From Chitinophagaceae bacterium (GTDB taxonomy: Bacteria > Bacteroidota > Bacteroidia > Chitinophagales > Chitinophagaceae): a DNA stretch of 64,000 nucleotides. The position numbers and the translations under genes were made by a program. The notes beneath the pieces are model-generated. The model saw only the letters and a list, made by a program, of their open reading frames with translations. It ran no database searches and was not told the DNA's origin. Below are positions 25,878 to 50,414 of this stretch, in pieces. The stretch is from contig CANGNA010000001.1 of NCBI GenBank assembly GCA_947455215.1, positions 52,800 to 116,799 of the forward strand, written 5' to 3'. The stretch's first letter is position 1. Each line of letters begins with the position of its first letter.

Positions 25878-26023
25878 CAGGAGTTGATCCCGGCCATCGG
25901 GAGATGGCCTACAATGAAATTGAAAATTTCGCATAACTGGGTTCATTTGGGTTATCCGAAAACGAATACGCCCCGATGGTTGTTGGTGCGAACACCAACA
26001 ACTGCGCTAATAATGTGTATATA

Positions 26024-45903: not shown

Positions 45904-46263
45904 AGTTTATGTTTTTGGTTTGTGTTTATGTTTATGGTTTGGTTTTGATTTGTAGGGGCTGCCCTTAGACTATTTTTCCTCTGTAGCGAAGTCAAAAAAG
46001 ACATAGCAGAACTGTTTTTTGTTTCCTTTGCTTTTAGAACACTACGCTGAACAGGATACTGCTGTCTGGTTGGTCATAGTTTATGTTTTTTGGTTTGTGT
46101 TTGTGTTTGTGTTTGTGTTTGGTTTGTGATGGCAAAGACTATGCTTGTTTTAAGTGGAGTCTATGTTTGATGTTATTAAACTTTTACTTTTTGTCTTTCT
46201 CTTCTATTTACCCTATAGTCTGAGCTGAAATTGGTACAGTACAATACCATTATTTTATTGCCT

Positions 46264-46761
46264 TTAATGATAAAAAGTAGCAAGAATGACTTTTTTATTT
46301 TCCATATCAACTACATAACGTGGTCTTTGGTATATGTCAACTCTTCCACTAATTTCAAAATTATTAAATGGCGTATTTTTATCTTTCCCTGTAAAGACAT
46401 CATCGAATCTTTGAAAATATATTGGATACAATCTGCCACATATATTCATTTTCCTATTTGACACGTTAAATATTGAATCGGTAGGATAAGCGTGTTTATA
46501 GTAAATACCAATATTGTACAAGTAATTATTGCTTTTCAGCCCATCTCCACGTATATAGCGAAAATCTCCGGCAGGTTCGATAAGTATATAAACTGAATCT
46601 TTATTTAGGGAATCAATTCTATTGCATAACAAACCTTCTAAGGAATCAAATACACTGTAGACAATGACTTGCTCACTGTATTTAGTTTGAGCTGACACAT
46701 TAACCGACATCACCAGCATTATAGCCAGTAAAAGTTTATTTAGGCTGATTCGGGCTATCAT
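46264..46761 (-). CDS. Hypothetical secreted protein, AT-rich
   Basis: Signal peptide (LLLAIMLVMSVNVSA). Confidence 0.7.
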   Translation of the reverse strand: MIARISLNKLLLAIMLVMSVNVSAQTKYSEQVIVYSVFDSLEGLLCNRIDSLNKDSVYILIEPAGDFRYIRGDGLKSNNYLYNIGIYYKHAYPTDSIFNVSNRKMNICGRLYPIYFQRFDDVFTGKDKNTPFNNFEISGRVDIYQRPRYVVDMENKKVILATFYH

Positions 46762-46803
46762 AATATTGCTTAATTATTTTATTTAATAATACATCTTGTA
46801 ATG

Positions 46804-47092
46804 TTCCGTCCTCGGAGAGTTTCTCTCATAGGCTTTGCGCAGCCGAGGACTCGCCGATATCGGGCGGGCGTAAGTGTGTCCATATTGCTCGAACCAATAC
46901 TTTTCAATGCATTCGGTCATATGAATAACATGTAGAACCCTTGTTGGCCTGTCTTATAAAATCCTGCAGAACTATACGTGGGTTTGTTTATTGGTATATT
47001 ATAAAGATACGATATTTTCATGCCCATCCGATATCGCCGGGTCCTCGCTGCGCGCAATGCCAGCGCACTGAGAGACCCGGCGAGGACGGAAA
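46804..47092 (-). mobile_element. Non-autonomous, internally deleted RAYT derivative (both REP ends plus the gene termini)
   Basis: Left REP 46804-46868; copy of the RAYT 3' end 46871-46980 fused to a copy of the RAYT 5' end 46981-47022; right REP 47023-47089. Confidence 0.88.
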
Positions 47093-47122
47093 TATGTGCT
47101 AAGATATCAGGTAGGTACCGCA

Positions 47123-47566
47123 CTATAACCCCTTGATATGTTGTTGGCTAAACAGTTCGGTTTCGCCATCGTAAAAGGTGGCATCGTGAAACTTGCCGTT
47201 GATCCAGGCATATTTTGCTACCAACACTTTATTGTAGTCCCAATCAGTATAAGGGTAAATATTCATTCTTTCATTTACCCCTTTCTCGCCGCTTTTATCA
47301 TATTTGAAAAAGACAATGAGGCACAATGAGTGATCTTCTCGCTCTGAAGGAATGTGACCCTTCACATAATCAGTGATGGAATCAAAAACTTTAGTGTTTT
47401 TTATATCAAAATTCTCTATGCCATATATCATCTCACATGTAGCAGGCCAGCACAACTTATCTTTCCATTTAAGATCAATGAACTTTAACGGCAGATGCTG
47501 TCTATTATGTACACAGGAAAGTAACGAAACCAATAAGAGCAGATAAAGAACTTTAAATCCTGTCAT
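47123..47566 (-). CDS. Hypothetical lipoprotein lying between the mini-RAYT and the RAYT
   Basis: Lipobox SLLSC; AT-rich. Confidence 0.72.
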   Translation of the reverse strand: MTGFKVLYLLLLVSLLSCVHNRQHLPLKFIDLKWKDKLCWPATCEMIYGIENFDIKNTKVFDSITDYVKGHIPSEREDHSLCLIVFFKYDKSGEKGVNERMNIYPYTDWDYNKVLVAKYAWINGKFHDATFYDGETELFSQQHIKGL

Positions 47567-47592
47567 ATATATTAAATGTTATTCTTATAATG

Positions 47593-47658
47593 TTTCCGTC
47601 CTCGGCGAGTCTCTCGCATAGCCTTTGCGCAGCGGAGGACTCGCCGATATCGGGAGGG
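47593..47658. repeat. RAYT-flanking REP (3' side), inverted relative to the 5'-side copies
   Basis: tttccgtcctcggcgagtctctc...gaggactcgccgatatcggg. Confidence 0.88.
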
Positions 47659-47659
47659 T

Positions 47660-48256
47660 CTAAGTGCGCCTATATTGTTCGAACCAATACTTTTCAATGC
47701 ATTCGGTCACATGAATAACATTGTACACCCCGTGTCGGCCTGTCTCATAAAATCCTGCGGAACTATGTGTGTAGTCTCCCGGGAACTGTACGAGATCCCA
47801 TTTTTTGCTGACCGGGTTGTTATGAATATAGTTTAATTTTTGATTGATGAATGCATATGAGTGACACAATTTAGCATCGAATGATGGCTTAAACACTTCA
47901 TGCAACTTGCCGTTATTCTTGTCGGAGGTGGAAACGCCAGCCGAAAGTACAGATAGTATATCTGTACTTTTGTTCAACTTTAATCTATTTACAATATCAT
48001 ACGCCATGAAGCGCTTTGCGTTGCCGATCATAGTATTAATGCTTTGTGTGCCTGGAGTAAACCCTATCAATGCATGAATGTGATTAGGCATGATAACATA
48101 ACCGGTGACGTGGTGACCCTTTTGCTGCAAAATGTCGAACCATTTATAAACCAGGTCATACGCATTGGTCAGTTCAAATAACAGTAGCCATTTGAAGTTA
48201 GTAAATGTGATAAAATATATGCCCGGCTGGTAGAGGTGGGGTTTGTTTACTGGCAT
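47660..48256 (-). mobile_element. REP-associated tyrosine transposase (RAYT, IS200/IS605 TnpA-like HUH-Y1)
   Basis: YFITFTN..W, YVIMPNHIHAL (HUH), KLNYIHNNPV (catalytic Tyr region), HSSAGFY; flanked by inverted REPs. Confidence 0.92.
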
Positions 48257-48281
48257 AGGATGAAGATACGATTTTTTGCTG

Positions 48282-49088
48282 CCCACCCGATGTCGCCGGG
48301 TCCTCGCTGCGCGCAATGCCGGCTCACTGAGAGACCCGGCGAGGACGGGAATGTATGCCCGGCTGGAGGAGGTGGCGTTTTTTTATTGGCATAGGATGAT
48401 TTTTTGCTGCCCACCCGATGTCGCCGGGTCCTCGCTGCGCACAATGCCGGCGCACTGAGAGACCCGGCGAGGACGGAAATGTATGCCCGGCTGGAGGAGG
48501 TGGGGTTTGTTTACTGGCATAGGATGAAGATACGATTTTTTGCTGCCCACCCGATATCGCCGGGTCCTCGCTGCGCGCAATGCAGGCTCACTGAGAGACC
48601 CGGCGAGGACGGAGACGTGACCCGGCTTGGTGCCCCATGTGCTGATTGTTGGTGCCAACACCAACAATTGCGGGTATCCCACCCGATATCGCCGGGTCCT
48701 CGCTGCTGGGCAATGCCGGCGCACTGAGAGACCCGGCGAGGACGGAGACGGGTCGCACTTTACCTTGTCGCGGAAATACTCTACCGGGTGCGGGTCTACC
48801 GGGTCTAAAGGATCACCATCTTTTATCAGGTCTTTCAGCATATTGTCCAGGTTGTTGAGATCGACCATGGTAAAGCTTTCGGGGTAGCCGTTGCTGTTTC
48901 GCAAGCGGGACGCTTGCCATAGTGGAGGACGAAGCGGGACGCTTACGACCAGTGTGGGTACTAATACTGCTTAGCGCCCCGCGTGCTGATCGTTGGTGGG
49001 AACACCAACAATGGCGTGTATCCCACCCGATGTCGCCGGGTTCTCGCTACGCGCAATGCCGGCGCACTGAGCGACCCGGCGAGGACGG
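48282..49088. repeat. Array of five 67-68-bp REP units (48282, 48410, 48546, 48678, 49022) with two embedded REP2 copies (48627-48671, 48971-49015)
   Basis: cccacccgatRtcgccgggtcctcgct...agagacccggcgaggacgg repeated. Confidence 0.92.
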
Positions 49089-49157
49089 GAGAAAGCTGAA
49101 GGTGCGCAACAAGGAAGCACTGCTACATGAGCTATACGAGATAGGGCTGTGAGGGGG

Positions 49158-49664
49158 CTAATGTGTTTCCGATCTGCTGATGACCTTAGACTTTTGCCAG
49201 TCACCCAGGTATTTTGACGGGGTTATGACCATGCAGCCCATCACTATGAGCACCACGAATGTGCGGACCAGGATATTGCGGTAGAACTGCAGGTGCTTTG
49301 ATGATTGCAGTATGACGAGTATGATGGTGAACAGCAGGTTGATACTGCCTATGGCATACACCACTTTGGGACTATTGTAGCCGTAAACAAGAAAATACAG
49401 TATGCCTGCTATAGAGAGCGAGAGTATGCCGGAGGCGAGTATGGCAATGGCCACGCGGGCGAAGGTGACTTGTGCATAGCTGCTTTTTTTCAGGCAGTTG
49501 CGCAGGCGCACATCGTTGAACAATAGTATGCCCCCCAGCAGGTATAAAGCGGCCAGGCATATCAGCGCCAGCGCTATAACGGGCCTGCCGCCTGCTATGG
49601 TCAGCAGGTTCATCAGCACGCCGGTCAATGCCATCAGGGCAAGTACTTTTTCCAGGAATTTCAT
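49158..49664 (-). CDS. Hypothetical multi-pass membrane protein
   Basis: About five TM segments. Confidence 0.7.
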   Translation of the reverse strand: MKFLEKVLALMALTGVLMNLLTIAGGRPVIALALICLAALYLLGGILLFNDVRLRNCLKKSSYAQVTFARVAIAILASGILSLSIAGILYFLVYGYNSPKVVYAIGSINLLFTIILVILQSSKHLQFYRNILVRTFVVLIVMGCMVITPSKYLGDWQKSKVISRSETH

Positions 49665-49739: not shown

Positions 49740-50414
49740 TTACTGATCCTCATCTTTGTTCAGTACCACATTTATCCGACCGTGCTCTGATCTTACGGTA
49801 TAGCTCAGATATACCGCCTGACCATCAGCCAGCATGAATTCTACGTCGTAGTCGGCATATTTGGTAGACTGGTCGGTGATAGTAGACGATATGATCTTAG
49901 GTTTATTATCGGCGAAATATTTTGCACAGCCGTAGGCGTATAATACAGGGAATTTGTGTTCAATATCAGGCAGATTGATGATAGTGCCTTCGTATAAACC
50001 TTTGTTTTTCAGATCATTATTGCCGGTCAGAAATATAACTTTAGACGGATCGTCTTTGCTGATATCTTTATCGTGTATGCCATAGTAAGCCAAAGAATCG
50101 GTCTTGTCTTTAGAGAGTGTAAACCAATAGGTGGTCCGGATGCCATCGGTGGTCGATCTCTTATCTTTTTCGGTTATCCTGGCGATCTCTGACGCACACA
50201 GAGATCTGATATTAGCTGCGCTGTATATGATAAACGCTTTAAATGCTATTGAATCTTTGTTGTACCCTAATCCGTCTATTTGGTTAGCGTCGGCCGGTGA
50301 TTCTATTTTTTGAGTAGCACTCCCTTCATGTGCCTCGGGATCGTAATTGGCAGGTTCATCTCCGCAACTGGTCAACAGTCCTGTTAAAAGACAAGCAAAA
50401 AGGAAATTGCGCAT
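49740..50414 (-). CDS. Hypothetical lipoprotein
   Basis: Lipobox LLTSC; TATCTTTG box upstream. Confidence 0.78.
   Translation of the reverse strand: MRNFLFACLLTGLLTSCGDEPANYDPEAHEGSATQKIESPADANQIDGLGYNKDSIAFKAFIIYSAANIRSLCASEIARITEKDKRSTTDGIRTTYWFTLSKDKTDSLAYYGIHDKDISKDDPSKVIFLTGNNDLKNKGLYEGTIINLPDIEHKFPVLYAYGCAKYFADNKPKIISSTITDQSTKYADYDVEFMLADGQAVYLSYTVRSEHGRINVVLNKDEDQ

Follow-up and report, generated by a model that had tools for sequence, protein, structure and literature searches.

It was previously shown that the Escherichia coli transposase TnpAREP binds folded repetitive extragenic palindromes (REPs) in vitro and nicks the DNA 5' or 3' of the REP (PMC3333891). The same enzyme also cuts far from REPs, requiring little beyond a dinucleotide, and its strand transfer assembles tandem bacterial interspersed mosaic elements (BIMEs); in the published model (Figure 7B of that study), a nick at the REP is followed by extension of the free 3'-OH, nicking of the new strand at a downstream 'linker' and joining, which adds one unit (PMC3333891). 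A short guide motif is believed to direct the choice of cleavage site, and the mechanisms of REP dissemination are poorly understood (PMC8266576). Among the related TnpAY1 enzymes, subclasses 2.4 and 2.6 have 'long' or 'atypical' flanking secondary structures, and REP sequences inside tnpAREP genes are known from subclass 2.4 (PMC6006769). Here, we analysed a 64,000-nucleotide (nt) stretch of a Chitinophagaceae bacterium (assembly GCA_947455215.1, contig CANGNA010000001.1, positions 52,800 to 116,799; hereafter the window, numbered from its first letter), which carries a gene for a REP-associated tyrosine transposase (RAYT) and, at the 5' end of that gene, a tandem array in which REP hairpins alternate with copies of the gene's own 5' end. 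While REPtrons, tandem BIME amplification and REPs inside tnpAREP genes are known, we found no description, in the papers that we consulted, of REP arrays with the RAYT's own 5' or 3' end as spacer, nor of their recurrence.

On the plus strand, positions 48213-48617 read S1-REP1-S2-REP2-S3-REP3, that is, three head-to-tail units (U1 to U3) of 128-136 bp, each made of a spacer (S) and a REP. The parts of the array, the RAYT gene and the REP at the other end of that gene are as follows.

47590-47658, minus strand: R0, R-type REP, inverted relative to the upstream REPs (predicted fold dG -17.7, z -3.7)
47660-48256, minus strand: intact gene for the RAYT, a TnpAREP-like Y1 HUH transposase (ATG at 48256, stop at 47660, 198 amino acids)
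48218-48281, minus strand: S1, the true 25-nt leader and RAYT codons 1-13, template of the repeated spacer
48282-48353, plus strand: REP1, L-type, 72-nt hairpin CCCACCCGAT...GACGGGAATG (single-stranded fold dG -20.9 kcal/mol, z -3.4)
48354-48409, minus strand: S2, decayed copy of leader, ATG (48392) and 13 codons, with an 8-nt leader deletion and 5 substitutions relative to S1
48410-48481, plus strand: REP2, L-type, with 3 differences from REP1
48482-48545, minus strand: S3, copy of leader, ATG (48520) and 13 codons, in which 2 of 64 nt are substituted compared to S1
48546-48617, plus strand: REP3, L-type, outermost of the array, with the tail GGAGACG as in REP4 and nearest to REP4 (3 differences)

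An earlier note on this DNA had described the array, and its measurements were largely reproduced: positions 48477-48545 were identical to 48213-48281 at exactly 66 of 69 positions, S2 was indeed the more decayed of the two copies, and REP starts were spaced by 128, 136 and 132 nt (the last interval is 133 nt at the REP ends, owing to a 1-nt insertion in REP4). The array had been drawn as far as 48677, of which the three units up to 48617 stood; the remaining 48618-48677, ahead of REP4, is a spacer with another palindrome and is not RAYT-derived. Likewise, the ATG is kept in each copy as claimed, but 13 rather than about 14 codons match, the 14th being altered (TAT to CAT). Whole-unit identity was 129/136 for U1 and U3 and 120/136 for U1 and U2, which places the three units at 88-95%. 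Tandem Repeats Finder (TRF) independently reported the array (48213-48613, period 128, 3.0 copies, score 669), and a 46-nt spacer pattern had 3 matches in the window and 0 in shuffled sequence. The copied starts, here called decoys, open short reading frames: that of U3 starts MPVNKPHLLQPGIH and reads through REP2 for 45 amino acids, and that of U2 ends in REP1 after 22 amino acids. A 173-amino-acid minus-strand open reading frame (ORF) at 48383-48904 is an artefact, a read-through of REP4, REP3, a decoy start and REP2, in which only the first ~45 codons (48760-48904) are unique sequence.

Each REP is a 72-nt imperfect palindrome with a CCGTCC foot, of the R type after the RAYT stop and of the L type upstream of the gene. 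Two fully compensatory pair changes distinguish the types, the stem variant of R0 being GGCGAGTC/GACTCGCC, and 95% of cells were paired when the eight REP copies of the window were aligned. All eight lie within 46.8-49.1 kb of the 64-kb window; a REP core pattern matched 7 times in the window and 0 times in shuffles. The RAYT gene is bracketed by inverted copies of the palindrome, which is the architecture of a REPtron.

The assignment of the protein to the RAYT family is supported by its HUH motif (MPNHIHAL) and a single catalytic tyrosine (within KLNYIHNNP), as expected of a Y1 fold; residues H59, H61 and Y143 were invariant among 25 homologues compared. Matches to curated profiles fell under their cut-offs, both for NCBIfam NF047646 REP_Tyr_transpos (E = 8.5e-18, 64.6 bits, cut-off 80) and, weakly, for Pfam Y1_Tnp (21.3 bits, cut-off 23). 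A search found 1540 homologues, many of them named RayT by JGI and mostly from Chitinophagaceae and other Bacteroidota. The family profile had a sole match in the PDB, the TnpAREP structure 4ER8 (E = 4.8e-4), in an alignment that pairs PNHlH with PEHMH and YIHsNPV with YIYINPV. Some RAYT proteins in the databases (P0101; L008:1820-1850) have C-terminal tails such as ...AESPRRETPLR, which are translated flanking REP hairpin; these gene calls run into the REP.

The earlier note had also placed the junctions at a motif that ends the REP, and this held. Junctions in the array read GACGG(G/A)AATG followed by TATGCC, compared to GATAAAATA followed by TATGCC in the gene, so that AAAT is common to REP tail and gene, with one mismatching base beside it. 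On the REP side, the break falls at the tail (between GACGGAAAT and G), which places it 4-5 nt past the foot of the hairpin and no more than one base from the end of homology in REP2 and in an independent copy belonging to a mini-element described below (48480). On the gene side, AAAT lies in codons 14-15 (48213-48216). The window copies show both the head-to-tail arrangement of REP and linker that characterises TnpAREP-type tandem BIME amplification and the short direct repeat at both ends and adjacency of copies that characterise slipped-strand duplication.

An array of near-identical units might have been collapsed or expanded by the assembler. We used Logan 31-mer unitigs as read evidence, at a depth of ~10x, which is noisy. 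In three metagenome runs of lake or freshwater origin, from two studies, unitigs matched 48180-48740 at 100% identity and covered each junction separately (48290-48427, 48451-48526 and 48557-48740). The array is not an assembly artefact, a possibility that the earlier note had named as grounds for dropping its reading; the units are also told apart by diagnostic substitutions and by an indel, and an artefact would not give rise to these. What can be said for an artefact is that a 31-mer graph leaves the number of traversals of the 264-bp loop unfixed and that words specific to U2 and U3 (48290-48580, runs X1-X3) had a depth of 4.3-7.3, compared to ~10 in the gene body and from REP3 to REP4. 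We consider this explanation very improbable. The lower depth, 0.44-0.9 of that of the flanks, is at ~10x coverage a hint that some of the population lacks the two-unit loop of 264 bp. In runs X5-X7, coverage of related strains was too low or their sequences had diverged too far, a search for proteins identical to the window RAYT gave no match, and a scan of metagenome contigs with the spacer pattern gave 27 matches, all of them chance matches in unrelated GC-rich genes.

The substitutions in the copies bear on the history of the array. Three departures from the gene sequence are common to S2 and S3 (TAC to CTC in codon 9 and TAT to CAT in codon 14), and tyrosine is kept at both codons in close relatives of the RAYT; thus the decoys carry derived states and descend from one ancestral decoy. 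Accordingly, the third unit was copied from, or recombined with, an existing decoy rather than made anew from the gene. REP1 is nearest to REP2 (3 differences), and REP3 is nearest to the outer REP4. The simplest history suggested by these patterns has two steps: one event put the leader and 13 codons beside a REP, and a later exchange added the third unit, either through unequal homologous exchange of a decoy with the gene region or in a further event from REP to REP. The sharing between S2 and S3 together with the closeness of REP1 and REP2 fits one gene-copying event followed by unit-to-unit exchange. The proposal of repeated copying from the gene therefore does not hold. Of the related proposal, repeated RAYT strand transfer into its own gene, the tandem array of 5' end and REP is retained, but the gene is intact and nothing has been inserted into it.

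We searched ~85 RAYT loci, of which 80 came from species-representative genomes and the few others from metagenomes, for extra copies of parts of the gene. REP-bounded duplications of a RAYT end were found at 14 further loci, about one locus in six: five involve the 5' end and a REP, nine the 3' end and a REP. They come from Chitinophagales, Cytophagales, Sphingobacteriales and one metagenome-assembled genome of the Acidobacteriota. The loci are listed below, with the end of homology in coding nt and the sequence shared at the junction where applicable; in the window, the shared sequence is AAAT.

L017: 5' end and upstream REP, two tandem units, ending at nt 54 and nt 42; shared TT and TTC
L038 (Pelobium manganitolerans isolate): 5' end and upstream REP, ending at nt 52; shared TTT
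L036: 5' end and upstream REP, ending at nt 36, with an unrelated gene between
L014: 5' end and upstream REP, ending at nt 249, unit of ~630 bp; shared AACGGTT
L008 (Ohtaekwangia koreensis isolate): 5' end, ending at nt 39, with the break after the same codon as in the window (GGT ATA)
L009, L021, L025, L050, L063 and L035: 3' end and downstream REP duplicated; shared AG in L025 and AAA in L050
L075 (Acidobacteriota): 3' end and downstream REP, two units
L076 (Mucilaginibacter isolate): 3' end and downstream REP, two units; shared AC
L115/L116: two units of 3' fragment and R-type REP upstream of the gene; shared GAAGT and AAGT in L115, where two gene sites (GAAGT and TAAGT) are joined to one REP tail, GGAAGT
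L030 and L056: whole-gene duplicates

L008 was rejected as a tandem REP-tail junction: there, the 5' end has been brought next to the 3' tail, with an R-type REP, by an internal deletion, giving a mini-element. At nearly all junctions, one end lies a few nt past the REP hairpin, the other inside the gene, with 2-7 nt of common sequence. In six of seven 5' junctions, the gene-side end falls within coding nt 36-54, a T-rich stretch that encodes the conserved motif G-I-Y-F-I-T-F-T. Copies at L036, L063 and L115 lie apart from the sequence that they duplicate. The closest relatives of the window RAYT (P0002 at 73%, P0003, P0004 and P0007; 73-64% identity) have REP arrays and no copies of the gene ends. 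A 68%-identical relative (L001:3150-3900) has five tandem L-R REP doublets with a period of ~172 nt directly upstream of its RAYT gene and no gene-derived spacer. REP arrays beside RAYT genes are thus common, and their content depends on the lineage.

The recurrence at 14 related loci points to a REP-directed process and agrees with what E. coli TnpAREP does in vitro and with the amplification model published for it (PMC3333891). The reading that we favour, to which we give a probability of roughly 0.5, is that the array arose by local head-to-tail amplification of a 128-136 bp unit through recombination for which the outer REP tail served as anchor, with the RAYT carrying out cleavage and strand transfer. 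In this scheme, the RAYT would bind the single-stranded REP hairpin and nick its outer tail, on the plus strand after ...GACGGAAAT(G) and, as read on the RAYT sense strand, before (C)ATTTCCGTCC. The free 3'-OH would then be extended to, or a second nick made at, a look-alike T-rich site ~130 nt away, between GGC ATA and TAT TTT in RAYT codons 13-15. Strand transfer joining both ends would leave an extra unit of REP, leader and 13 codons upstream, with the gene untouched, and the decoy ATGs and short ORFs would be by-products with no demonstrated function. The scheme follows the tandem amplification put forward for TnpAREP and BIMEs of E. coli, except that the site cut in the 'linker' would lie inside the transposase gene.

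The same junctions could have formed independently of the RAYT, by slippage or template switching, if a new strand carrying the folded REP hairpin slipped between the AAAT at the REP tail and that in codons 14-15, with the third unit added by RecA-type unequal exchange between the 130-nt repeats. Shared bases at the junctions are exactly what slippage predicts and were present at nearly every one (4 nt in the window, 4-5 in L115, 7 in L014, 3 in L038 and L050). Junctions also lie in A/T runs, typical sites of slippage; the pairing of S2 with S3 and of REP1 with REP2 fits homologous unequal crossover; and the depth hint that only part of the population carries the loop is as expected for frequent homologous gain and loss. 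On the other hand, slippage does not explain why the outer tail of the REP forms one end in nearly all of ~15 independent events, given that upstream or internal ends would be equally neutral, nor does it explain the non-adjacent copies at L036, L063 and L115. Hairpins in the template classically favour deletion over duplication, which we also counted against slippage. Because of the repeated use of the REP tail, the non-adjacent copies and the reuse of one tail motif at two gene sites in L115, we favour catalysis by the RAYT, without regarding it as proven, and consider slippage the less probable of the two, though a serious contender.

Several observations weigh against RAYT catalysis. The cut site of the enzyme was deduced from the junctions alone, and the sharing of 2-7 nt is also a signature of replication slippage or microhomology-mediated joining. 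The base beside AAAT is G in both decoys and A in the gene, which needs a cut one base further inward or a later mutation. Not all cases look site-specific, given that the junction of L075 lies ~65 nt beyond the hairpin and that L014 shares 7 nt. REP-core unitigs had a depth of 72-99 compared to ~10 for single-copy sequence, only ~7-10 times as deep and implying, from metagenome words, ~7-10 copies in the genome; this RAYT therefore seems to have dispersed few REPs, and that it is active is unproven. Finally, the survey sought gene-derived duplicates only, so that the apparent preference for the gene side of the REP stems in part from the design of the search.

Additional copies of the REP and of its neighbouring sequences lie on either side of the array.

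46803-47095, minus strand: mini-element, in which ~95 nt from the 3' end of the RAYT gene and ~55 nt from its leader and 5' end lie between an R-type and an L-type REP
48618-48677, then 48678-48750, plus strand: unrelated spacer with the palindrome ATTGTTGGTG-N4-CACCAACAAT, then REP4
from 48969, then 49022-49093, plus strand: second copy of the palindrome-bearing spacer, then REP5

The mini-element and the intact unit are 500 bp apart and separated by one small gene (47123-47566). Its internal deletion is at a CAC microhomology, and tblastn placed RAYT residues 137-198 at 46873-47027. It shows that the whole REP-RAYT-REP unit has at some time been duplicated or mobile. A comparable mini-element was found at L008:1655-1850, 1.2 kb upstream of the Ohtaekwangia RAYT gene.

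Such elements raise the question of whether the array is what remains of tandem copies of the whole element, inserted beside itself at a left-end target motif in the manner of IS200/IS605 insertion sequences (ISs) and then reduced by deletions that each removed the sequence between codon 14 and the next REP. The two mini-elements, the whole-gene duplicates in L030 and L056 and the distinct L and R hairpins, which resemble the left and right ends of an IS, are all compatible with this, as are the units of 3' fragment and R-type REP upstream of the L-type REP in L115, which are expected of a trimmed upstream element. Against it, either two identical deletions or a deletion followed by a duplication would be needed, each ending at the REP tail, so that a REP-anchored break is still required. 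No R-type REP or 3' remnant is present inside the array, and the window, which holds one intact RAYT gene and one decayed mini-copy, contains no tnpB and no multi-copy identical elements. We regard this origin as improbable.

It had been proposed that the decoy starts limit expression of the RAYT. In its selected form, this would make the array a regulatory device in which extra leaders and starts titrate ribosomes or terminate in REP hairpins, damping RAYT expression. The leader and ATG are kept in each decoy, the U3 ORF stops 4 nt past the U2 ATG, and a self-limiting transposase is plausible in principle. However, S2 has diverged and lost 8 nt of its leader, which indicates that the copies are decaying rather than conserved. 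In relatives, the 3' end is duplicated as often as the 5' end, and 3' copies cannot be decoy starts; the closest relatives (P0002, P0003, P0004 and P0007) are without 5' copies. The Bacteroidetes -7 motif TAnnTTTG was absent from both strands of 48200-49300, no conservation of the decoy ORFs was found, and no RNA runs holding the locus were found. The proposal that decoy starts limit expression was thus not borne out, and a selected device is more doubtful still than the remnants of whole elements. Most likely, the array is a footprint of REP-anchored recombination rather than a regulatory device.

Other repeats occur around the array. The palindrome TTGTTGGTG-N4-CACCAACAA represents a second family, with copies at 25980-26001, 48646-48667 and 48990-49012 in the window and others at L076, L061 and L008. 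In Mucilaginibacter loci, it flanks another RAYT clade (~30% identical), with 6 copies around the L076 gene, and in Ohtaekwangia it lies inside the RAYT 3' end; no second RAYT that might go with it was found in the window. A third dispersed family includes the perfect palindrome GCAAGCGGGACGCTTGC at 48901-48917 and a half-copy at ~48925-48945; its metagenome word depth is ~7x that of the flanks, and L017:2580-2600 holds a similar GCGAGCGAGACGCTCGC. A possible fourth, older and decayed unit of the array, suggested by TGACCCGGCTTGG after REP3 and its resemblance to the spacer start TATGCCCGGCTGG, was rejected, given that the full alignment was no better than those of shuffled sequences (P ~0.15). 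The CCGTCC foot of the REPs contains CGTC and so recalls the CGTC-tagged REPs without a dedicated transposase (PMC3733652); those families have 8-9 bp stems, and we note the link as a lead only. The stretch 46000-48000 has a GC content of 0.38, compared to ~0.47 elsewhere. In or near it are four small ORFs without a Pfam match (46264-46761, 47123-47566, 49158-49664 and 49740-50414), two of which begin with signal-peptide-like N-termini. A hexanucleotide microsatellite, (TTTGTG)x7, and a GTTTAT-type repeat are located in intergenic sequence at 46089-46128 and 45905-45945.

More broadly, REP-bounded duplication of RAYT ends might be a general in vivo footprint of a cis-preferring RAYT 'cleavage at a distance', which we suggest tentatively and hold to be possible rather than probable. 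If so, such junctions would directly reveal which motifs uncharacterised RAYT clades cleave and target, and the units, together with mini-REPtrons such as 46803-47095, would be a birthplace of REP-array linkers and REPIN-like doublets. No biochemical study of Bacteroidota RAYTs is known to us; the naturally occurring joins of a REP tail to the RAYT's own gene, found across lineages, yield testable predictions of their cut sites. For annotation, arrays of this kind create spurious ORFs, such as the 173-amino-acid frame above, and false start codons, and short-read assemblies readily collapse or expand them.

Among known systems, REP-mediated tandem chromosomal duplications with REPs at the join point were reportedly described in Salmonella and E. 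coli by Shyamala, Schneider and Ames in 1990. Those joins are REP-to-REP and span kilobases, whereas the window joins a REP tail to a non-REP site in a gene over ~130 bp. Members of the IS200/IS605 family that move by 'peel and paste', and the miniature inverted-repeat transposable elements (MITEs) derived from them (IS608, ISDra2), resemble the window in that their left and right subterminal hairpins differ from each other, that they are cut a few nt away from these hairpins (compare the position of the window junctions) and that they have internally deleted miniatures like the mini-element; their target motif, kept at the left end, allows insertion beside an existing copy. An IS of this type is expected in several near-identical full copies, often with tnpB. 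The window has neither tnpB nor multi-copy identical elements, its array unit lacks a right end, and the element is not an IS200/IS605 insertion sequence by these standards.

Closer in protein are the TnpAY1 subclasses 2.4 and 2.6 of Bacteroidetes and Cyanobacteria (RAYT groups 4 and 5; PMC6006769), which share with the window protein the motifs NH[ILV]H and YIHNNP, a length of ~180-200 amino acids and Bacteroidota hosts; this is a likeness of motifs and length rather than an assignment to either subclass. Unlike in subclass 2.4, where REPs occur inside the gene, the window REP lies outside the gene, and the gene end is duplicated outside together with it. The closest parallel in organisation is the REPtron with its REP or BIME arrays, as known from E. 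coli, Pseudomonas and Stenotrophomonas (PMC3333891, PMC8266576, PMC3116915): one Y1 HUH gene lies between inverted REP hairpins, with a variable number of tandem REP units beside it. REPtron REPs are GTAG-tagged and 20-40 nt long, compared to the 72-nt imperfect hairpins with a CCGTCC foot found here, and the copy number of the window REP in its genome is apparently low (~7-10). In the published model, nicks at the REP and at a distant 'linker' site let strand transfer add one unit, with the difference that the 'linker' of the amplified unit in the window is the transposase's own leader and first 13 codons.

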